Positions 25,554 to 35,668 of a DNA stretch of 64,000 nt are shown piece after piece. This DNA comes from Candidatus Cloacimonadales bacterium (GTDB lineage: Bacteria > Cloacimonadota > Cloacimonadia > Cloacimonadales > JAIOQZ01): positions 3,520,001-3,584,000 of the forward strand of contig OY762463.1 in assembly GCA_963665815.1 (NCBI GenBank). Direction: 5' to 3'. The translations under genes were made by a program, and so were the position numbers. Positions within the stretch are counted from its first letter, which is position 1. Each line of letters opens with the position of its first letter. The notes below the pieces were generated by a model. It did not search any database. It was not told the origin of the DNA and saw nothing but the letters and a program-made list of their open reading frames with translations.

Positions 25554-25901
25554 TTATAACAGTATGCTATCTATTGATGATTTTAGCTGTTCCTTAGGTA
25601 ACGCACCCATTGCCATCTGAGGTTTCCCTTCTTTAGGAATGAACAACAAAGATGGGATACTTCTTATTCCAAAAGCCCCGGCAAGTTCCTGCTGTTCCTC
25701 AGTATTTACCTTAAATATGTCGATTTTACCTTCATACTCCTGAGATAATTCCTCAAGTACAGGAGCTATCATTTTGCAAGGTCCGCACCAGTCTGCATAA
25801 AAATCGATTAAACATGGTTTTTCACCAATGAATTTCCAGTCTTCGCTATTCTCATAATCAAATATCTTTTTGATGAATGTTTCTTTTGTTAAGTGTTCCA
25901 T
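25554..25901 (-). CDS. trxA: Thioredoxin
   Basis: DFYADWCGPCK, IRSIP; no signal peptide. Confidence 0.95.
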   Translation of the reverse strand: MEHLTKETFIKKIFDYENSEDWKFIGEKPCLIDFYADWCGPCKMIAPVLEELSQEYEGKIDIFKVNTEEQQELAGAFGIRSIPSLLFIPKEGKPQMAMGALPKEQLKSSIDSILL

Positions 25902-25989: not shown

Positions 25990-26979
25990 TTATCTGTCAC
26001 CTGTAAATCGAAAGAGTGCGCCGGATGTCTCTTCATTAATACCAAAAGCATATTTGTTTAACTGCTGTTGCACTGCTTCCAGCGGGAATCCTTTTTTCAC
26101 TGCAATAATAAATGAAGTACTGTTTAATTCTTCAATAACTACATCTTCTAAGGTTGACTCTGTGAATATAATAGAGTTTTCTAAATCCTTGAAGCTCACA
26201 GTGTCATTTATTGTTTTTATTTCGATGTTTCTACCAGTCTCTGCACTGAGCATTTTTTGCAGTTCCTTGAAATACCCCTGATTATCCTCAGCATATACAA
26301 GTATGTTTCGTTTCGTTTCAAAAACGCTGATTTGCTCAATATAATTCATAGGTGGAGCAGGATTAAAGTATTTCACAAGTCCTGTGATACCAAGAATTGT
26401 ATATATTACAGCAACGAGCAATGCGGCATATCTGGCGTATTTTTTGATAATGTGAATTTTGGTTAGTACGTTAACAAATGCGAGTGGGAGCAGGAAAAGT
26501 GATGTACTGATGAAAAATCCAAAGAAAAGAAGCATTCCATTAATCACACCTCCGATATCAAGTACACGTGAAAGAGCTATAAGGAATGACGGGCAGAAAT
26601 TTATCCCGGTCAGAATACCTAACAGAAAAGCGCTTTTGGAAATTTTGGCAATTTTCGGTACAGCACATTTTTTATGTTCATTGTGAGTTCTGTATGTTGT
26701 CAGCAAGAGATATGCAGAGAGCAATATGTAGGCTATTGACGTATACAATGATCTGTTTGTTCCGGAAATAACAGATCCGGTAAAACCTGCTAATGCTCCA
26801 AAAGTAAGGTATGAGAAAAATCTACCGGCGGAGATTTCTACAACAGCCATTATACTGCTGCTTATCTTTCTGTCTTCTGTCAGAAGGTAGGGAAGGTAAA
26901 TCGGTGCACAGGATGCAAGGCATGTTGCTCCTGTTGCAAAGCCGAAGAACAGTCCTTCAAATAATATTCCGAACTGCAT
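25990..26979 (-). CDS. CcdA/DsbD_2 (TauE-like) membrane protein with a soluble C-terminal domain
   Basis: About 6 TM helices with membrane Cys motifs TCLASCAP and NFCP; ~120 aa hydrophilic tail. Confidence 0.7.
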   Translation of the reverse strand: MQFGILFEGLFFGFATGATCLASCAPIYLPYLLTEDRKISSSIMAVVEISAGRFFSYLTFGALAGFTGSVISGTNRSLYTSIAYILLSAYLLLTTYRTHNEHKKCAVPKIAKISKSAFLLGILTGINFCPSFLIALSRVLDIGGVINGMLLFFGFFISTSLFLLPLAFVNVLTKIHIIKKYARYAALLVAVIYTILGITGLVKYFNPAPPMNYIEQISVFETKRNILVYAEDNQGYFKELQKMLSAETGRNIEIKTINDTVSFKDLENSIIFTESTLEDVVIEELNSTSFIIAVKKGFPLEAVQQQLNKYAFGINEETSGALFRFTGDR

Positions 26980-26984
26980 AATTT

Positions 26985-28115
26985 TTACCAGATATACAAG
27001 ATACTTACAGTATGAGTTTGTGTATCATCCAATTCAGAATAATTTTCCATACTGAAATTGTAGTTAAGGTAAGTGGAATTATTCAGAAATTTAAATCTTA
27101 AACCACCATGAAGCTCATTTTCAGTTTCAATGTTTACACCATAAAAGTATCTGTATTCAGTGTGAAGCGTTAGTAATGTTATGGGGTACTCAACTTTAAG
27201 CTTAATGTATCCCTGCTCATCTACAGTATAATACTTAGTACCTGCCTGAATAAGTGCCAGATCATTATCATCTGTATAGAACAGGTTTCGCTGCAGGATT
27301 GTTTCGATAAATGATGTTCCCCAGAGCAGTTCATCATCTTCCTTAATCATGCGAGTCTGGAATCTGTTTACGGAAAGCCAGTCCTGACTGAGCTTAAACA
27401 GATGTCTCACATTAAAATATCCATGGATTCTATTGTTTTCATAGCCATCTGAAACATCGTATATCGCCGAGACAGTGCTCTTGAGAAAATGCTGATGATT
27501 GAAGCTCAAGAAAAGCTCTGCTCCAAGCTCGTTCATAATATAGTTATAATCTGAGTTGTCATTTAAATCATTGAATGACTGAATACGGAAAAAAGGTTTC
27601 AGTTTCTCATGTTTAATGTACTGCATCTTCATGTCGATAAGCTGATCACTTTCTATATGTTCATCATTCTCAAGTGCAAGACGACGCATATCTAAGTTCA
27701 TATCCAAGCTGACAGTTTCTCTGAAATTACTGCTCAAGCTGAATCCGCCATACAATTGATTTTCCTGTTTCATTGCTTCAGGAATACCGCTGATATGGAT
27801 TTCCTTGTTATTATCAAAATAACCTTCTGCACCCACATAAGCGCTGAAAGAAAATATTTTGGAATATCTGGACAAAGCAACTGTGTTTTTCAGATAGTTA
27901 TTATAGTATGATCCATTAAATTCATCATTAGCATTGTATTTCAATAATGTAACATTACTAATATTAATGGATTTATATTTTAATTTTGCATAATTCTCAA
28001 CTCTCATGATAGAATCATCATTGTCAGAGGAGTTATATTCAATTTTCACCTGATTCTGAAACCCTGAAAGAAGGAATGGCATAATGATGATCAGTATTAT
28101 AAGTATTTTTCTCAT
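26985..28115 (-). CDS. Predicted outer-membrane beta-barrel protein
   Basis: Signal peptide; alternating strands (FSFSAYVG, LHGGLRFKF, YLNYNFS); C-terminal VSILYIW. Confidence 0.6.
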   Translation of the reverse strand: MRKILIILIIIMPFLLSGFQNQVKIEYNSSDNDDSIMRVENYAKLKYKSINISNVTLLKYNANDEFNGSYYNNYLKNTVALSRYSKIFSFSAYVGAEGYFDNNKEIHISGIPEAMKQENQLYGGFSLSSNFRETVSLDMNLDMRRLALENDEHIESDQLIDMKMQYIKHEKLKPFFRIQSFNDLNDNSDYNYIMNELGAELFLSFNHQHFLKSTVSAIYDVSDGYENNRIHGYFNVRHLFKLSQDWLSVNRFQTRMIKEDDELLWGTSFIETILQRNLFYTDDNDLALIQAGTKYYTVDEQGYIKLKVEYPITLLTLHTEYRYFYGVNIETENELHGGLRFKFLNNSTYLNYNFSMENYSELDDTQTHTVSILYIW

Positions 28116-28357
28116 CTTATAGCCTCCTCAGGACATTTTGTCACACAATCACCGCATTGCTTGCATTTCGACTGGATTATTGAAGCTTTCCCGTTTGTAA
28201 TTACAATTGCATCATGGGGACAGGCATCTCTGCACTTTCCACAGGATATACATGCATCCTTGTCTATGGAATATTCAAATGATGTTGCTTTTTTACAACC
28301 TGCAAAAACAGCGAACACGAATGAAAGAGCTAAGAATATATAGAGGGCTTTTCTCAT
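28112..28357 (-). CDS. 2[4Fe-4S] ferredoxin lipoprotein
   Basis: MRKALY...FAGC lipobox; CISCGKCRDACP and CKQCGDCVTKCP; ATGA overlaps with both neighbours. Confidence 0.85.
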   Translation of the reverse strand: MRKALYIFLALSFVFAVFAGCKKATSFEYSIDKDACISCGKCRDACPHDAIVITNGKASIIQSKCKQCGDCVTKCPEEAIR

Positions 28358-28599
28358 TTTATTGCTCCGAATGTACATGTTGTAAGACAGAGTTTACAGT
28401 TGATGCATTTCTCTGTGTCAATCACAGCTTTGCCTTCTGATACTGTTATTGCCTTTACCGGGCATACTGTCTGGCAGTCTCCACATCCGGCACAGTCTGA
28501 CTGTATAACGATCGGTTTTTTATCTTCAGATTTCGCATTACCTGCAAAAACGATGAAAACCAGAGAGAGTAAAAATATTATTATAAATGTTTTCTTCAT
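28354..28599 (-). CDS. Exported 2[4Fe-4S] ferredoxin
   Basis: MKKTF...VFA signal peptide; CAGCGDCQTVCP and CINCKLCLTTC. Confidence 0.85.
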   Translation of the reverse strand: MKKTFIIIFLLSLVFIVFAGNAKSEDKKPIVIQSDCAGCGDCQTVCPVKAITVSEGKAVIDTEKCINCKLCLTTCTFGAIK

Positions 28600-28608
28600 A
28601 TTCCCTTC

Positions 28609-30819
28609 CTAATATACGTGAACACCAAGGTGAATAGCATTCCAGCCGCATCTGTTATAGCATGTACCACAAGCATCACATGCTGCCGTATCAATTGTCT
28701 TATAGTTTCCTACATCCGATATTGCATCTTCAGGGCAGAACCTGAGACAGCTGTTACAATCAGCACATTGATTCGGGTTTATGATGTATACAATCTTACC
28801 GGAAACAATATTTGATATTGATCCGTAATTGTTGCTGTCATCTATTGCTTTGATAGCTATGTAATAACGAGTTCCGTTTGAAATTCCATTTACATCGCAG
28901 GTTTGAGTTGTTCCTGCCGCACCTGGTGCCGGAGAACTGGAAAACGGACTTGCATTATCCCAGTTTGCATCTGTTATAGGTGATTGAGAATATCGAATAT
29001 CATAGCTTGCTGCAGTTCCTATATCAGCATCATCTCCGGGGGCAGTCCATGTAACACGTAATCTCCCGTTCAATGCAGCGGATGCCACGATTTGGAGATC
29101 GGTAATGGCTGACGGAGGAGTATCATCGGCTGTTAACTGACCTGATACAATGTTGGATATTCCACTGTAGTTTCCAGCTTCATCAAAAGCTTTAATACCG
29201 AAATAATACAGTGTTCCAACTTCTATGTCAGTTATCTCAAAACTTTCTTGATTACCATTTGCCTGCGGAGTCAAACTGCAGCTGACAGGATCGGCAGAAT
29301 CCCAGTTGGTAGAGTTCAGTTCTGTTGTAGATTTTTTTATCTCATATCCTTCACTTGTTCCAGTGTTACCATCATCACCTGTTGAAGTCCATGTGAGTTC
29401 CATGGAAGCAGGGAGCAGGCTCAGTTGCAAGTCAGTAATATCTGCAGGAGCAAGAGTGTCTGCCACTGTATCCGTAGTGAAAGATACAATATTAGATAAT
29501 CCGGATATGTTATCGGAGTCATCAATTGATTTGATACCTATATAGTATTCAGTATCTGATGTAAGATTTGTAATAAGAAGACTTTCATCAGATCCTGATT
29601 GTGATGGAACATAGTTATGGGGAAACTCTGTCAGGGAATCCCAGTTTTGATCGGTAATATCAGCTTCACTGACTTTTATGATGTATTCCGTAGCTGTCCC
29701 TGTATCACCATTATCTCCCGGAGCAGTCCAGATTATTCTGGCACTGGAAGCTGTAACCAATTCTGTTGCGAGGTCACTGACAGTTGACGGTGGAGTTACA
29801 TCTCCTGTGATAGATGCAACAGCAATATTGGATAGTTCAGATTCATTATCAGACTCATCTACAGCTTTTATGGCAAATTCAAAGCTGATTCCTACTTCAA
29901 GATCATCAATAACGAGGTTTTCAGATATTCCAGCGGTTTGTGGTGAAATAGAATTATTATATTCCTCAGCCAGATCCCAGTCAAAGGGGCTTGTTTGGGA
30001 ATATTTAATAATGTAATGATCCGCTGTTCCTGTCATATCATCATCACCGACAGCAGACCAACTCAGTTCTATTGATTCTTCATTTGATACAGCAGCAAGA
30101 TCGGATATAGCTGCAGGTGCTGTTTCATCAGTGATCAGTCCTGCTATGATGGTAGATCTTTCAACTTCTGTATTTTTATTGCCTGCTTCATCTTCAACTT
30201 GAAGTCTAACGGTTAAAAGGTAATCTGAATTAAGACTGTCAACAACCCATTCGACATGGGTGCCGCCCTGATAATAAGCGTATTCTGCACATGGAATTTC
30301 AACTTCTTCCATATCATCATATTCATCGTCATCAACGTCATCAACGTCATCATCATTGGCCCTTGTATCGGTCATATCATCGAGGTAGGCTGACAGTTTA
30401 TATTTATATGCATAACCTGTCATTCCATCATCTCCCGGAGCAGTAAAAGATATAACTGCTTCGTATGGATTTTCTGAAACAACTTTGAAGTCATTGATAT
30501 CTGCCGGTGCATTAATATCTTTTGCTGTTGTAAAAGCAACTGTACCATCACGACCTTCACAGTCAGCGAAGAGATCAATACATTTCATGCAGCTAATACA
30601 TTTGTCTTTATCAATGTAATATGCTCCGTTTTCATCATCGAGAAGAATGGCATTCTCCGGACATTCAAACATCGTTGTACAATTACCACATTGAGTACAA
30701 TCGGAATATTCAATTCTTGGCTGATTGTTATTTCCGGTGTTTTTATTCACTTTATCAGCACAGAAAAACAGCAGGAATGATACAGCAAGAATTGCTATTA
30801 TCTTAATAGTTTTGATCAT
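28609..30819 (-). CDS. Lipoprotein: ferredoxin domain, five FN3-like repeats, ferredoxin domain
   Basis: LLFFC lipobox; CTQCGNC/CISCMKC; repeats D..P.AI.DL...(W/F)TAPGDDG..G.A..Y; CADCNSCLRFCP/CDACGTCYNRC. Confidence 0.85.
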   Translation of the reverse strand: MIKTIKIIAILAVSFLLFFCADKVNKNTGNNNQPRIEYSDCTQCGNCTTMFECPENAILLDDENGAYYIDKDKCISCMKCIDLFADCEGRDGTVAFTTAKDINAPADINDFKVVSENPYEAVISFTAPGDDGMTGYAYKYKLSAYLDDMTDTRANDDDVDDVDDDEYDDMEEVEIPCAEYAYYQGGTHVEWVVDSLNSDYLLTVRLQVEDEAGNKNTEVERSTIIAGLITDETAPAAISDLAAVSNEESIELSWSAVGDDDMTGTADHYIIKYSQTSPFDWDLAEEYNNSISPQTAGISENLVIDDLEVGISFEFAIKAVDESDNESELSNIAVASITGDVTPPSTVSDLATELVTASSARIIWTAPGDNGDTGTATEYIIKVSEADITDQNWDSLTEFPHNYVPSQSGSDESLLITNLTSDTEYYIGIKSIDDSDNISGLSNIVSFTTDTVADTLAPADITDLQLSLLPASMELTWTSTGDDGNTGTSEGYEIKKSTTELNSTNWDSADPVSCSLTPQANGNQESFEITDIEVGTLYYFGIKAFDEAGNYSGISNIVSGQLTADDTPPSAITDLQIVASAALNGRLRVTWTAPGDDADIGTAASYDIRYSQSPITDANWDNASPFSSSPAPGAAGTTQTCDVNGISNGTRYYIAIKAIDDSNNYGSISNIVSGKIVYIINPNQCADCNSCLRFCPEDAISDVGNYKTIDTAACDACGTCYNRCGWNAIHLGVHVY

Positions 30820-30831
30820 GAAATAACCTTA

Positions 30832-31542
30832 TTATTTATTTTCTTTTTTCTCAATAACTTTCACAGGACATGCTTTTTCACAAATTCCGCAATCAATGCA
30901 TTTTTCCTGGTCAATTACAGCTTTGCCTTTTTTCATTTCAATGGCACCAACAGGGCATTTTTTTACACAAATTTTACATCCAATACATTCTTTAGCATTT
31001 ACAGAATAGACAATCTTGTCTTTGGGATTTGCAACTTTTGCTTCAGCTTTATCAGCTTCCGGTGCATTCTGGCATGGATGGGTTCCACATGGTGTGTGTT
31101 GTGGTTTATGTGCATCTTTAACTGCTTTGTATTTTTCAGATCGTTTTTTTTGTTTTTCTGTTTCTTCATTGAAAGTTTTTACTTTTGGTTTAATTTTTTT
31201 TGCTTCCAGAAGTTTGTCTGTTGTAAATTCCTTAGATTTATGAGTCGTAACAGTTGCTTTGTCTTCAGTTATTTTTTTGAGGTCAACTGCTTCGGATTTT
31301 GCTTTTGATTTAACAATAGCATTTATGGGGCATTTATTAACACAAATTCCGCATCCAATACATTTATCTTTGTCTATAACAGCTTTCCCGTCTACCATTT
31401 TAATTGCATCAACAGGACAATCTTTTATGCAAAGTTTACATCCTATACAGTCATCTTTCTTCACTTCATATTTGGTTTTTACAGTTGCGAAAACTGCAAA
31501 TGTCAGTACTAACATTAAAGCAATGGTAAGTAGTTTCTTCAT
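30832..31542 (-). CDS. Exported tetra-[4Fe-4S] polyferredoxin with a Lys-rich linker
   Basis: AGGAG SD; MKKLL...VFA signal peptide; four CxxCxxCxxxCP motifs in two domains. Confidence 0.85.
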   Translation of the reverse strand: MKKLLTIALMLVLTFAVFATVKTKYEVKKDDCIGCKLCIKDCPVDAIKMVDGKAVIDKDKCIGCGICVNKCPINAIVKSKAKSEAVDLKKITEDKATVTTHKSKEFTTDKLLEAKKIKPKVKTFNEETEKQKKRSEKYKAVKDAHKPQHTPCGTHPCQNAPEADKAEAKVANPKDKIVYSVNAKECIGCKICVKKCPVGAIEMKKGKAVIDQEKCIDCGICEKACPVKVIEKKENK

Positions 31543-31640
31543 TTTTTTTATCTCCTGAAAAAATATATTATTTATGTTTGTCAAAAACAAGCATAATATT
31601 AAATAATGGCAAGTAAAAGTTAGAGTAAATGGAGTGCGAA

Positions 31641-32429
31641 ATGAAAAAGCATAAATCACGTTATATCATTCAGTTTTTGTTTCTTGCTGTCTCAATGTTT
31701 ATCAATGTACTAATGATCACTGAGAAGCTTGGAGTAGCTCATGAATTCTGCCCGTTTTCTGCTGTCTGTTTCGGGTTATTTGTTTTACATCCTGCAGTAA
31801 CAGACTGGATTTTCGGAGTTTCAATTACAGTTTCTATTATAATTATTTTATCTGCAATTCCTTTCAGAAGGGTTTTCTGTGGATATGTATGCCCAATAGG
31901 CACAATACAGGAATATGTGTTTGCTTTTTTCAAGTTTAATAAGAAATGTGGAAGAAGGATTCCGGAAAAAATGCATAAAGCATTGTTATGGTTGAAGTAT
32001 ATTGTACTTGCTGCAATTGTAGTCTTAGTTATCAATGGAATGCACAGGTTTTATGTAGATAAATGTCCTGTTTATTCTCTGGGGCATGTAACCGGAATTA
32101 CAATATCCGGAATTGCTGTATTACTTGTGATTTTTGTCGGCTCTTTCTTTATTGAGCGATTATGGTGCCGGTATCTTTGTCCATTGGCTGCGCTGCTTAA
32201 CATAATGCAGATCATAGGAAAAGTTTTACATATACCATCTTACAAGATAAAGAGGAACTTAGCTGACAGCTTTTGTTGTAGAGATTGCCCTGAATACTGT
32301 CCTATGGGAGTAAATTATAAAGACAAAGAAGTAGTTGAATCAGTAGAATGTATACAATGTAGATTTTGTCAAAGACAATGCTGTTTATCCGCAAAAGATT
32401 TATCGAAATGTATTCATAAGAATCCCTGA
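31641..32429 (+). CDS. NapH/MauN-like membrane 4Fe-4S protein
   Basis: TM helices; FCGYVCP and WCRYLCP motifs; C-terminal ferredoxin-like Cys clusters. Confidence 0.85.
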   Translation: MKKHKSRYIIQFLFLAVSMFINVLMITEKLGVAHEFCPFSAVCFGLFVLHPAVTDWIFGVSITVSIIIILSAIPFRRVFCGYVCPIGTIQEYVFAFFKFNKKCGRRIPEKMHKALLWLKYIVLAAIVVLVINGMHRFYVDKCPVYSLGHVTGITISGIAVLLVIFVGSFFIERLWCRYLCPLAALLNIMQIIGKVLHIPSYKIKRNLADSFCCRDCPEYCPMGVNYKDKEVVESVECIQCRFCQRQCCLSAKDLSKCIHKNP

Positions 32430-32509: not shown

Positions 32510-33307
32510 TTATTTTGATTTCCTAAACTGCTTTTTTTCTTTGACTTCTTCATTTTTTCTGAATTCAGAAGATAGTTTTCTTAGTTTATCGTCCATTTTC
32601 AGACTCTGCCATTCTTTAAAGCCGCCTTCAAGAACAAAGATTTGCTTATCTTCAAATTTTGCAAGTCGTTCTGCAACAGTTGCAGCATTTTCAAATTCAT
32701 TTGCATATACGAAGAAAAACTGTTTTTTGCTGAGATTCTTCATGAAAGTTTCCTTTTTTTCAGACTTGACATCAAGATTAACAGCACCATAAATATGGTG
32801 TTCTTCGAAAATGTATTCCGGGCTTGCATCAATAATAATGCTGTTATTATAATGTTTTACAAGGATATCGAAAGCATTTTCCGAAGATACATACTGAATT
32901 TTGTTAACCGGCCGAGTGGGCTTTCTTTTTTTTCTTGGAGCTCCGGTTATGTGACCTTTCATAGTAACTATTTCATATTCATTGGCAGTGTTAGCATAGA
33001 TTTTAATTCTCTTGTTATGGCGTCCTGCCTGACGCTTAGGGTTAAAGTCCACTTTTACAAAGCCTTTCTTACCAGGCATAATCTTTCCAGTTGACCAACT
33101 GGTTGAGGAACATCCGCATCCAGACTGGATTTTGGATATTACTAACGGCTCATCCCCGGTATTAGTGAAGTTATACGTGTAGCTGAATGGACCGTCTACT
33201 TCTTTCCATTCCTTGAAATCATAGGTGTCAGTTTCGAAACTCATCACCGGTACTGAATTCAGGGCAGCAGAAAGAATCAACATCACAAGCAATAAATATC
33301 GCTTCAT
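32510..33307 (-). CDS. Exported DUF1573 (Ig-like) plus rhodanese-like protein
   Basis: Signal peptide; FTNTGDEPL.I....GCGC; IID.....F...HIYGAVNL and LEGGFKEW. Confidence 0.8.
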   Translation of the reverse strand: MKRYLLLVMLILSAALNSVPVMSFETDTYDFKEWKEVDGPFSYTYNFTNTGDEPLVISKIQSGCGCSSTSWSTGKIMPGKKGFVKVDFNPKRQAGRHNKRIKIYANTANEYEIVTMKGHITGAPRKKRKPTRPVNKIQYVSSENAFDILVKHYNNSIIIDASPEYIFEEHHIYGAVNLDVKSEKKETFMKNLSKKQFFFVYANEFENAATVAERLAKFEDKQIFVLEGGFKEWQSLKMDDKLRKLSSEFRKNEEVKEKKQFRKSK

Positions 33308-34941
33308 TCGATTACTCCCTTCATGCTGATTTGCATTGTTTTTCTGTTACCATCCTCATGAAAAAACATTGTTATTTCTTCAGAACCTGAAAGTTCAAAT
33401 TCGTCTGAATCCGGAAGAAATATAATTGATTTCTTCAAAATAGGTATCAAATTTATGTTATTATTGCAAAAGTTAAGTTTTTCGTAAAGTAATTTTCTGA
33501 TAGTTTTAGATTTCTCCTGTCCAAGAAGATCAGGATAATGAAGGTTTTTAGTTATAAGACACCAGTCCCATCGCAGATAATCCATACAAGTATGCCTTTG
33601 CTCAGGAAGGTATTCATCACACAAATCAAGCAGAAATTCGGCAACTGTCAGCCACCGATTGTTTGTAAGTCTGCAAGATAACTCAAAGTCCAGAAGAGTC
33701 TCGAAGAACAACATTGGACTGTCATATTTTCTGATAAGCCAGTTCAGAGTATTGCTGAATTTACCTGAATTATGCAGGATTTCCATCCAGACAGCAATTT
33801 TTTTAAATTTCCTGATCTCTGAATAACTCATCCAGTCTGTACTAAGAACTTCGTAAGGTGGTTCAACAGTATGAATAAGATTGTTATAGCAGGTGTTGAT
33901 TGTTGTACCTTGCAGAACTTTCAGAAAACCTATTTGTATATGATCTGCTCCTGTGTTAAACAAATCATTTAATGTGACTGATGCAGATTTATAATCCTGA
34001 TGAGGCAGTCCGGTGATCATGTCAATATGGGTGTGGATGTTTTTCAGTTGAATAAGCTTTAGCAGGTTTGACCTGATATCATTCCACTTCTGGAATCTTG
34101 ATACTGCATAATTGACGGCATCGTCAGTTGACTGTATCCCGATTTCAAATTGAAACTTGTTTTCCGGTACAGTGCTGAGGAACTCAATATCTTCATCAAT
34201 AACAAAAGCAGGATGAATCTCAAAATGAAATCCGGTATTAGTGGTTTTACTTAATATTGATTTCCATAATTGTAAACTGTAATTTCTGTCGCAGTTAAAT
34301 GAGCGATCTATGAATTTGATCAAATCCGGTTTGAATCCGAGAATATAATCAAGTTCTGCAGATACTTTCTTAATGCTTTTCCTGCTCAGTTTCATGTCTT
34401 CACGTGAAGAAAGACAATAAGAGCACTTGAAGATACATCCTCTGGATGCTTCATAATAGATAATTTTGTTTTCCAGGCATTTCAGATCAATATTTTTATA
34501 TGGGTTATCTGAGAGCTCAAAATTGTCTGCTTGTCCATATATTATTTTTCCTTTAACACTGAAATCTGATTCGGCGAGATTTATTATTGCCTTTTCTCCC
34601 GGTCCTGAAATGATATAATCTGCAATATCTGTGTATTCCTGCGGATTGTATGAGACTTCAGGTCCACCAAAAACTATCACGGACTCAGGCATAATCCTTT
34701 TGAGATTAATAGCTACCTGCTTAACCAGAGAAACATTCCAGATATATACAGAAAAACTGTAAACATCTGCTTTTCTGTCATAGAGGTTGTTCAGTAGTTC
34801 ATCTGCAGGTGTATTGATAGAATATTCAGAGATTTCAGATTCAATGTTGCAATTAGCAAGAGCCTGGTGTAGATAAAAAACTGCAGGATTAGAGTGTGAA
34901 TATCTTGCATTAAGGGATACAAACAGTATTGTCTTATTCAT
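33304..34941 (-). CDS. B12-binding-domain radical SAM protein (DUF4080 type)
   Basis: FSVYIWN, GGPEVS, YYEASRGCIFKCSYC, FEIGIQS. Confidence 0.88.
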   Translation of the reverse strand: MNKTILFVSLNARYSHSNPAVFYLHQALANCNIESEISEYSINTPADELLNNLYDRKADVYSFSVYIWNVSLVKQVAINLKRIMPESVIVFGGPEVSYNPQEYTDIADYIISGPGEKAIINLAESDFSVKGKIIYGQADNFELSDNPYKNIDLKCLENKIIYYEASRGCIFKCSYCLSSREDMKLSRKSIKKVSAELDYILGFKPDLIKFIDRSFNCDRNYSLQLWKSILSKTTNTGFHFEIHPAFVIDEDIEFLSTVPENKFQFEIGIQSTDDAVNYAVSRFQKWNDIRSNLLKLIQLKNIHTHIDMITGLPHQDYKSASVTLNDLFNTGADHIQIGFLKVLQGTTINTCYNNLIHTVEPPYEVLSTDWMSYSEIRKFKKIAVWMEILHNSGKFSNTLNWLIRKYDSPMLFFETLLDFELSCRLTNNRWLTVAEFLLDLCDEYLPEQRHTCMDYLRWDWCLITKNLHYPDLLGQEKSKTIRKLLYEKLNFCNNNINLIPILKKSIIFLPDSDEFELSGSEEITMFFHEDGNRKTMQISMKGVIE

Positions 34942-35668
34942 TTCCGAGTGATTTGACTCTCTCATATATAATGGTTTTAGCTTTTTCCAGATCTTCAGGG
35001 AAATCTATTTCAATACATGGAAGATCCTGACTTGGAACTGCTTTTAAAGTTGTTTCAGACAGCATCAGATTTACAGCATACTCAAAATAATTGTTACCAA
35101 GATTTTTATCAACGCATTCTGTCAGCCTGTTTTCCAGAAGCTTCAAGTCGTTTCTGGCAAATTTTGCGATACCTATGAATTCACCTGCACATTTTTCAGG
35201 TTCGATCTGCTTGCCTATAAAACTGATGTCCATATTTTTATCAATAACAAGTTTTACTTCCTCAGCTCCGCATTTTTTCTCTTCAAGGATAAATTCGGAT
35301 GTTTGAGAATTATTGAACAGATCAAGCATTTTTCCACCAAAGAATATGTCAGCATTAAAATATATGAAATCGTCTGTAAACAAATCTCTGCAAAGCCATA
35401 ATGAATAGAGTGTGTTGGTTGTTGCATAAATTGGATTTTCTACGAATGTAACCTGATCAGGCTTGAGAAGTTCCAGTATATGGGACTTAAGTACATCCAT
35501 CTGATAGCCGACAACAACAACAAAGTCATTGATCCCATATTCTAAACATGTTTGTATCTGATTATGGATAATGGATTTTTCACCGATTTTTATCATGCTT
35601 TTAGGTTGTTCTTTACCCTTTGTACCAAGTCTGCTTCCTCTACCGGCAGCAAGTATTACCGCTTTCAT
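34934..35668 (-). CDS. Phosphocholine cytidylyltransferase-family NTP transferase
   Basis: MKAVILAAGRGSRL, PKS, TNTLYSL, EIDFPEDL. Confidence 0.85.
   Translation of the reverse strand: MKAVILAAGRGSRLGTKGKEQPKSMIKIGEKSIIHNQIQTCLEYGINDFVVVVGYQMDVLKSHILELLKPDQVTFVENPIYATTNTLYSLWLCRDLFTDDFIYFNADIFFGGKMLDLFNNSQTSEFILEEKKCGAEEVKLVIDKNMDISFIGKQIEPEKCAGEFIGIAKFARNDLKLLENRLTECVDKNLGNNYFEYAVNLMLSETTLKAVPSQDLPCIEIDFPEDLEKAKTIIYERVKSLGNE

Follow-up and report, generated by a model that had tools for sequence, protein, structure and literature searches.

The window considered here is the whole 64,000-nucleotide stretch analyzed from a Candidatus Cloacimonadales bacterium (assembly GCA_963665815.1, contig OY762463.1, positions 3,520,001 to 3,584,000). 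At 28609..30819 on its minus strand, it encodes a predicted lipoprotein of 736 residues with the architecture ferredoxin-(FN3)5-ferredoxin, in which five fibronectin type III (FN3) repeats separate two dicluster ferredoxin domains. The gene stands in a tight minus-strand run encoding, in order, a two-domain signal-peptide ferredoxin, this two-headed lipoprotein, a small signal-peptide ferredoxin, a small lipoprotein ferredoxin, a predicted outer-membrane β-barrel, and a DsbD_2 inner-membrane protein. Judged from sequence, the two-headed lipoprotein has an even chance of being a tethered surface electron shuttle, i.e., the outermost carrier of a heme-free porin-ferredoxin conduit.

The open reading frame (ORF), Pfam matches, alignment, charge distribution, and AlphaFold2 model agree with a sequence-only reading made earlier, which had recognized a lipobox, a ferredoxin domain at both ends, and five acidic FN3 repeats. 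The N-terminus, MIKTIKIIAILAVSFLLFF-C20, runs from a basic n-region through a hydrophobic h-region to the cysteine and, by motif and alignment, is a Sec/SPII-type lipoprotein signal peptide (30760..30819, minus strand) with Cys20 as the predicted lipidated residue and no twin-arginine motif. The lipobox, LFFC, is atypical; the cysteine itself is invariant in 15/15 and 17/17 aligned homologues. The signal peptides of all cassette proteins were called in this way. The membrane-proximal ferredoxin (Cys41-Cys87, 30559..30699, minus strand) harbors C41-C44-C47-x5-C53-P followed by C74-C77-C80-x6-C87, a CxxCxxC-x5/x6-C spacing that the sequence-only reading rightly called atypical, while quoting the second motif incompletely, without its fourth cysteine at x6. 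The tip ferredoxin (residues 674-736, 28612..28800, minus strand) carries C685-688-691-695 and C714-717-720-724, a canonical spacing. By these motifs, both are eight-cysteine Fer4 dicluster domains with two CxxCxxC..C motifs each.

The stalk (residues 101-673, 28801..30519, minus strand) comprises repeats at approximately 101-229, 230-338, 339-452, 453-563, and 564-673, with net charges of −26, −22, −16, −14, and −7, respectively (about −85 overall). A D-x-x-x-P start, a W-T-A-x-G-D-D loop, and a D-E-x-x-N-x-S turn are all conserved. The earlier description of five acidic repeats of ~110 residues stands in outline; repeat 1, however, spans 129 residues owing to a poly-Asp insertion private to this protein, DDDVDDVDDDEYDD, and the string WTAPGD is exact in only two of the five repeats, the others having FTAPGDD, WSAVGDD, and WTSTGDD. 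The FN3 assignment rests on a Pfam fn3 match (E 2.7e-26; Fer4 families are likewise above cut-off) and on the β-sandwich fold of the AlphaFold2 model (15-row alignment), with which Foldseek retrieves FN3 arrays. The predicted local distance difference test (pLDDT) is mostly 80-94 for the confident FN3 blocks, moderate for the tip ferredoxin, and poor (<50) for the N-terminal ferredoxin, and a predicted template modeling score (pTM) of 0.32 leaves the overall shape open, so that the extended or rigid rod assumed earlier is not borne out. No solved relative of the repeat was found, the best PDB match being the chitinase A1 FN3 (E 0.011). Residues 564-672 resemble the calcium-activated chloride channel regulator (CLCA) model TIGR00868 (E 4.6e-44, far below cut-off), i.e., the repeats may be of a CLCA-like FN3 subtype. 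By analogy with SiiE, calcium may stiffen the stalk through the conserved Asp motifs.

A homologue search with the lipoprotein returned 252 matches; among the 120 listed, those with the cysteine motifs share the lipobox-ferredoxin-(FN3)n-ferredoxin architecture, and those that are named belong to Cloacimonadota. This domain order is seen in 71 distinct full-length homologues, most of them ~35-45% identical to the query, and is therefore not a product of chance. All 8+8 ferredoxin cysteines are kept in 71/71. The conserved motifs and recurrent architecture sustain the earlier view that a cofactor-free FN3 stalk holds two redox-type domains apart, and neither observation that the sequence-only reading had named as telling against it was made: no known non-redox family sharing the architecture was found, and the terminal cysteine motifs are not lost among homologues. 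Estimated from protein length, the stalk ranges from 4 to 14 repeats, with 4 in 22 homologues, 5 in 18, 6 in 23, 7 in one, 8 in six, and 14 in one. Across the family the dicluster spacing is not canonical, although the tip domain encoded in the window is. In place of the canonical CxxCxxCxxxC, the N-terminal ferredoxin has x5 in both motifs (65/68 each), and the final cysteine of the last tip motif is preceded by x1 in 40/68, x2 in 5/68, and x3 in 23/68 homologues. The profile of the N-terminal ferredoxin matches only Fe-S proteins in the PDB (10/10), RnfB being the best (E 3.7e-8). This domain is found once per genome in 53/232 Cloacimonadota genomes, is absent from the largest family (0/98), and has no plasmid match at E 1e-10. 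The same FN3 repeat type occurs alone in many non-redox secreted proteins; the stalk is therefore viewed as a generic spacer and the ferredoxin heads as the defining part of the family. Two homologues show either decay or assembly error, one with an in-frame TAA in the N-terminal ferredoxin (G219:C24:50449-50688) and one, from a TatC-positive genome, split into ORFs of 475 and 305 residues (L042:10446-12931).

All remaining members of the run are on the minus strand. The small signal-peptide ferredoxin has 81 residues (28354..28599), and the small lipoprotein ferredoxin has 88 from its first ATG (28112..28378), with a stop that overlaps the start of the barrel gene. The barrel (376 residues, 26985..28115) is a predicted 20-strand, plug-less outer-membrane protein with a C-terminal Trp and no Pfam or NCBIfam match, and it is followed by the DsbD_2 (PF13386) inner-membrane protein with an unassigned C-terminal soluble domain (25990..26979). 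On the other side of the two-headed lipoprotein, 30832..31542 encodes a 236-residue signal-peptide protein with two dicluster ferredoxin domains and a Lys-rich linker, and a NapH-like (Fer4_5, PF12801) membrane Fe-S protein (31629..32429, plus strand; E 1.7e-16) is divergently encoded in the window.

In 20 loci from genomes bearing the two-headed lipoprotein, the barrel is present in 20/20, each small ferredoxin in 18/20, and DsbD_2 in 16/20. An exported ferredoxin protein is encoded upstream in 13/20 and takes the two-domain form of 30832..31542 in only 7/20; the NapH-like gene is found in 9/20, in 7 of the 9 co-directionally. The small ferredoxin pair also lies directly upstream of the barrel in 20/20 further barrel loci, mostly from families without the two-headed lipoprotein. 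Both small ferredoxins keep fully canonical dicluster motifs, and the CP..AI and ID..C ferredoxin signatures persist, together with all eight cysteines, in every exported ferredoxin class. The barrel profile matches 112/232 Cloacimonadota genomes, in most as a single copy, and 48/53 carriers of the two-headed lipoprotein, the five misses being fragmented assemblies. On account of these presence counts over loci and genomes, the two small ferredoxins and the barrel form the core of the cassette, to which the two-headed lipoprotein is an accessory module. The Lys-rich protein that the sequence-only reading chose as partner is likewise accessory, and the more constant downstream partners (i.e., the two small exported ferredoxins, the barrel, and DsbD_2) had been overlooked. 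Outside the phylum, the range was probed with the DsbD_2 subfamily and the barrel profile rather than with the lipoprotein itself; an alignment of DsbD_2 against GTDB genomes yields 80 loci, nearly all from Cloacimonadota and several from Fibrobacterota, most with the same gene order.

The barrel model (89-row alignment, ~360 residues) shows 20 β-strands and no plug with a pLDDT of 95.4 and a pTM of 0.88. Fold searches return generic barrel matches at 7-10% identity, none of which stands out at 20 strands; the best are the barrels of TonB-dependent transporters (Z 17), and MtrB scores Z 15.6. A word-index homologue search with the barrel finds 3 proteins, and an ESM Atlas search finds unnamed clusters and porin-like leads. 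Complex prediction of the barrel and the small lipoprotein ferredoxin with two 4Fe-4S clusters scores 0.26 against a mark of 0.32, a value that, with controls not folded, bears neither way on binding. DsbD_2 has four invariant cysteines (Cys20, Cys24, Cys105, and Cys129), three of them in predicted membrane segments, and no solved relative was found (best E 0.11).

Several features border on or vary within the cassette. DsbD_2 orthologues from the family of the window (L032:11029-12405 and L035:9880-11286) have an extra Cys-rich insert and an apparently duplicated C-terminal domain. In the upstream exported ferredoxin, a ~110-residue N-terminal domain without a Pfam match often replaces the first ferredoxin (L093:5472-6038 and many others). 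The thioredoxin gene adjoining the cassette (25554..25901, minus strand) is rejected as an operon member, as it recurs in 1/20 neighborhoods and has its own consensus promoter, a perfect TTGACA-16-TATAAT at 25957-25930 (minus strand). Promoter and terminator counts are otherwise at chance level (35 vs 29.1 and 3 vs 3.3, respectively). A signal-peptide DUF1573-rhodanese fusion and a B12-binding radical SAM gene adjoin the other end (32510-34965, minus strand), a linkage kept only in the sister genome (the radical SAM gene also in L048).

The side of the outer membrane on which the two-headed lipoprotein acts is indicated by what replaces it. In cassettes that lack it, its slot often holds a 180-residue protein consisting of a signal peptide, a ferredoxin, and a confirmed C-terminal domain of the type IX secretion system (T9SS). 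Of the 79 distinct barrel loci, the 71 that have 1.5 kb or more of upstream sequence comprise 36 with the two-headed lipoprotein, 14 with the ferredoxin-T9SS fusion, 0 with both, and 19 with neither of these nor a short lipoprotein type. The fusion occurs in 17/232 genomes, all of which have the barrel and none of which is among the 53 carriers. Tip ferredoxins and T9SS-fused ferredoxins form one group in a first tree (support 96/87; a single long T9SS row lies apart from the group) and in a second tree from which that row and the cytoplasmic ferredoxins were left out (support 100/99); the N-terminal ferredoxin fell among the small signal-peptide ferredoxins in one tree only. SprA and PorV are present in the source genome. 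It also has 147 ORFs that end in a PNPFNP-like T9SS/FlgD tail and a lone 259-residue protein (G000:C1:2718599-2719378, plus strand; L152:2600-3376) consisting of a signal peptide, a dicluster ferredoxin, CarboxypepD_reg, and a T9SS C-terminal/FlgD domain, the ferredoxin of which falls in the T9SS/tip group.

The lipidated end carries a further indication. Residues +2 to +6 after the lipid cysteine are net acidic in 51/60 two-headed lipoproteins vs 3/52 small lipoprotein ferredoxins, and the small lipoprotein ferredoxin of the window is neutral or basic there. The homologue consensus is C-[TS]-D-D, and the surface-lipoprotein (LES) signal of Bacteroidetes, as given in the accessible part of PMC5080379, is negatively charged after the cysteine, of the K-(D/E)2 or Q-A-(D/E)2 type. 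Given the stalks of 4-14 repeats, the grouping of the tip with T9SS ferredoxins, and these acidic residues, the surface arm is the better fit of the two options in the sequence-only reading, the other being a periplasm-spanning arm. The lipoprotein is thus likely displayed at the cell surface. The slot of the two-headed lipoprotein is filled in Fibrobacterota loci by different predicted lipoproteins that combine a ferredoxin with an FN3-type or similar stalk (L121, L124), a predicted convergence on one slot that is counted in favor of the surface shuttle. At L121:2427-10618, this is a 1045-residue predicted lipoprotein with an FN3 array and a tip ferredoxin, and the two small ferredoxins of that cassette have RR-containing leaders. 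A 370-residue lipoprotein with two ferredoxin regions and a NapH fused to a NapG-like part are also seen in these loci (L121:2427-10618, L124:8992-10101, and L122:8986-9609).

The source genome is a single contig that is 98.7% complete, and neither TatA nor TatC of the twin-arginine translocation (Tat) system has a match in it. Across the phylum, TatC is above cut-off in 8/232 genomes and in 2/53 carriers of the two-headed lipoprotein, and an RR-like string occurs in 1/305 cassette ferredoxin ORFs, within an extension that precedes the probable start. Since their signals are of the Sec type and no Tat match exists, the exported ferredoxins would cross unfolded and receive their 2[4Fe-4S] clusters outside the cytoplasm. 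Such insertion after Sec export, if the domains hold clusters, would be the surprising point of the system. We infer that DsbD_2 is the best candidate helper for extracytoplasmic cluster assembly, and a rhodanese in the periplasm would offer a candidate source of sulfur, though its linkage is not conserved. A 363-residue protein with a signal peptide and a dicluster ferredoxin motif, encoded elsewhere in the genome (G000:C1:2205257-2206348, minus strand), is possibly another Sec-exported Fe-S protein; it resembles a DUF362 protein.

The layout of the cassette follows the gene logic of porin-cytochrome conduits (i.e., Shewanella MtrCAB, PioAB/MtoAB, PCC3, and Geobacter Pcc), in which a surface redox lipoprotein, an exported periplasmic carrier, a plug-less barrel, and an inner-membrane protein are combined. 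The extracellular part of those conduits varies in length, as does the stalk; PCC3 extracellular cytochromes have 10-35 hemes according to the available text of PMC9900912. A plug-less barrel encoded with exported redox carriers is indeed present. In contrast, the cassette has no heme, cytochrome c assembly protein, or MtrB/PioB match: the source genome contains no multiheme ORF (only DnaJ/UvrA-like ORFs have two CxxCH) and no match to Cytochrom_C_asm (PF01578) or to the MtrB/PioB porin family (PF11854). Its barrel is also smaller (20 strands and ~360 residues vs a chain of 649 in MtrB), and its long part is a cofactor-free FN3 stalk instead of a conductive chain.

In the ApbE-flavinylation systems (Meheust et al. 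2021; PMC8238504, seen in part), NapH-like and DsbD-type proteins feed extracytosolic carriers, and the cassette shares with them a NapH-like PF12801 protein and a DsbD-clan protein. Of 143 barrels, 17 have the flavinylation motif [S/T]GA[S/T] within their first 150 residues vs 2 in the next 150, and an FMN_bind protein follows DsbD_2 in L122 (Fibrobacterota). However, the cassette carriers are exported dicluster ferredoxins, whereas ferredoxins are called cytosolic in the accessible part of PMC8238504. DsbD_2 is of PF13386 and not PF02683, and the barrel has no DUF3570 match, so the combination of PF02683, DUF3570, and a thioredoxin-like protein is absent. No apbE or flavin mononucleotide (FMN)-binding gene or domain occurs among the 11 window proteins scanned; ApbE is encoded in the source genome outside the cassette. 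A separate region (G000:C1:43815-46836) encodes a thioredoxin-like lipoprotein or secreted protein, ApbE, and a 491-residue protein with an STGAS motif, and resembles a DUF3570 flavinylation cluster, the family name being given by resemblance. In L129:2252-6105, strings of the form D-x-x-S-S-A-S/T, similar to ApbE flavinylation sites, occur twice in an FN3 lipoprotein and also in a secreted protein and in the barrel; this variant is possibly a flavin-for-ferredoxin swap of the surface module.

NapG, DmsB, and the hydrogenase small subunits are periplasmic Fe-S proteins exported by Tat. The cassette has in common with this class a NapH-type membrane protein and, as predicted, 4Fe-4S carriers outside the cytoplasm, and is set apart from it by the predicted lipid anchor and surface display and by the lack of a twin-arginine signal in the lipoprotein and of a TatA/TatC match in the genome. 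Its ferredoxins share the eight-Cys dicluster domain and CP..AI signature of bacterial 2[4Fe-4S] ferredoxins and polyferredoxins (Fer4; MvhB/VhuB, RnfB) and differ in their export signals, FN3 or T9SS fusions, and shifted cysteine spacing. With Bacteroidota surface lipoproteins and T9SS cargo, which is known to comprise mostly enzymes and adhesins, it shares acidic post-Cys residues in most homologues, sister ferredoxins with Por_Secre_tail, and SprA and PorV. A T9SS in Cloacimonadota is only proposed in the accessible part of PMC11285876. By these features, the cassette has the porin-cytochrome layout yet lies outside that class as well as the Tat-export and flavinylation-cluster classes. No description of the lipoprotein or the cassette was found in the main texts of open papers, and the accessible portions of surveys that depict the phylum as fermenters equipped with Rnf and nearly devoid of cytochromes do not mention it (10.1101/2021.10.08.463351; PMC8542988).

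As a surface shuttle, the lipoprotein would operate as follows. Electrons of low-potential cytoplasmic carriers would cross the inner membrane via the NapH-like protein and/or the four-cysteine DsbD_2 protein, and the exported ferredoxins would ferry them over the periplasm to the plug-less 20-strand barrel, either passing them on at its mouth or carrying them through it. At the outer face, the N-terminal ferredoxin, ~20 residues from the lipid anchor, would receive them. As the stalk is cofactor-free and unconstrained in its number of FN3 repeats (4-14), the tip ferredoxin would be charged by bending back or by touching a neighboring arm; once charged, it would reach past the lipopolysaccharide to an external acceptor or donor such as a mineral, humic matter, or a partner cell. 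The weakest step is the passage of electrons from the N-terminal ferredoxin to the tip across the acidic, cofactor-free stalk.

The same components might instead serve assimilatory metal handling, a rather unlikely alternative in which Fe(III) or another thiophilic metal is bound or reduced by the surface ferredoxins, enters through the barrel, and is moved across the inner membrane by DsbD_2, with electrons serving only to mobilize it. The four invariant cysteines of DsbD_2 and the resemblance of the barrel to TonB-dependent transporters would suit such a function, PF13386 includes UreH-like metal-handling proteins, and the NapH-like CcoG is a cupric reductase. An iron transporter accompanies some flavinylation DsbD clusters (PMC8238504, seen in part). 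However, the barrel is plug-less and resembles other barrels only generically, TonB, Feo, and ABC transporters are not regular neighbors in the loci read, and the small ferredoxins retain canonical dicluster motifs. It is less probable again that the lipoprotein stays in the periplasm, with its stalk linking inner-membrane carriers to barrel-side carriers. A straight FN3 repeat measures ~3.5-4 nm, such that five would extend over ~18-20 nm, near the periplasmic width; moreover, the N-terminus of the lipoprotein is itself not acidic, and a surface-lipoprotein pathway has not been demonstrated in Cloacimonadota. Stalks of 4-14 repeats nevertheless go far beyond the expected variation of periplasm width, the tip ferredoxin groups with and replaces T9SS-signal ferredoxins, most homologues are acidic after the cysteine, and many barrel loci do without the lipoprotein.

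The remaining alternatives concern the ferredoxin domains and their partners. That these domains are disulfide- or Zn-stabilized folds, kept in order by DsbD_2 and acting as a thiol redox buffer, sensor, or adhesin tip, is improbable. The lack of a Tat match, the shifted cysteine spacing, the occurrence of the FN3 repeat type in non-redox secreted proteins, and the service of extracytoplasmic thiols by DsbD-family proteins (accessible part of PMC8238504) would agree with it, whereas the persistence of eight cysteines and both signatures in every class, the NapH-like Fe-S protein and flavinylation motifs that travel with the cassette, and the inconstancy of the thioredoxin do not. Docking of the Lys-rich polyferredoxin (30832..31542) onto the acidic stalk by charge, as the sequence-only reading suggested, is very improbable as a means of bridging both ends. 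The genes are adjacent and the charges opposite in the source genome (about −85 for the stalk and +18 for the partner), and the partner is at +17 in the sister genome, but it is at −9, −5, −1, and −20 in four other orthologues (4/5 scored). The two-domain form is also infrequent, no exported ferredoxin protein at all is encoded upstream in 7/20 neighborhoods, and two ferredoxin domains are unable to span 8 to 14 repeats. Hardly any credence is given to uncleaved N-terminal anchors with the ferredoxins facing the cytoplasm, as in RnfB. The Fe-S export problem would then vanish, and RnfB is the best PDB sequence match of the N-terminal ferredoxin; yet the n-regions before the h-region are basic, the lipobox cysteine is invariant, and T9SS domains on sister ferredoxins, FN3 stalks, and a linked outer-membrane barrel all speak for export.

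The surface shuttle must in turn be weighed against a number of observations. Charging of the tip is a weak step, since an acidic and possibly Ca-stiffened stalk would resist bending back. The mutual exclusion of the two-headed lipoprotein and the T9SS fusion follows phylogeny, such that related genomes are not independent, and the source genome has the lipoprotein plus the longer ferredoxin-T9SS protein elsewhere. Only 56-57 columns underlie the ferredoxin trees, and convergence was not reached in the first (bootstrap unsettled). The homologue consensus does not include the exact K-(D/E)2 signal, and ADKVN, the stretch that follows the lipid cysteine in the window's own protein, is net neutral. 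The lipoprotein is accessory, 19/71 barrel loci show none of the scored surface modules, and DsbD_2 and NapH are often missing. The flavinylation motif has no counterpart in the barrel of the window, and most of its occurrences fall within one related subclade. Whether a quinol feeds the NapH-like protein is doubtful because the only UbiA-family match in the source genome (G000:C1:1592428-1593138) has its best NCBIfam score, below cut-off, to geranylgeranylglycerol-phosphate geranylgeranyltransferase (DGGGP synthase), which suggests ether-lipid and not quinone synthesis. For cluster supply, the source genome has one NifU match and no SufBD match, and no exported Fe-S scaffold was found in a survey of its signal-peptide proteins. 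Fe-S proteins outside the cytoplasm are normally exported folded via Tat, as is generally known and stated in the accessible part of PMC3623810, and the drifted cysteine spacing of both ferredoxin domains could point to another metal or to disulfides.

The wider proposal, held at somewhat less than even confidence, is that, in Cloacimonadota and some Fibrobacterota, apo-ferredoxins exported by Sec are fitted with [4Fe-4S] clusters outside the cytoplasm and serve, together with a dedicated 20-strand barrel, as a heme-free electron conduit. The two-headed lipoprotein would be the surface arm of this conduit, adjustable in reach, and other lineages would have a flavinylated FN3 protein or a T9SS-secreted ferredoxin in its stead. 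Two expectations would thereby be challenged, namely that Fe-S proteins leave the cytoplasm only folded and via Tat, and that diderm bacteria pass electrons over the outer membrane by multiheme cytochromes. The tip domain and the ferredoxins of 60 residues lend themselves readily to expression, which makes cluster acquisition and the help of DsbD_2 directly testable. Even if the role were metal handling, Sec-signal dicluster ferredoxins with a barrel of their own match no system found. Roughly one in two sampled genomes of this phylum, which is poor in Tat and in cytochromes and abundant in digesters and anoxic sediments, has the cassette; if the proposal is true, these fermenting, cytochrome-free anaerobes would have a direct path for electron transfer outside the cell or between species.

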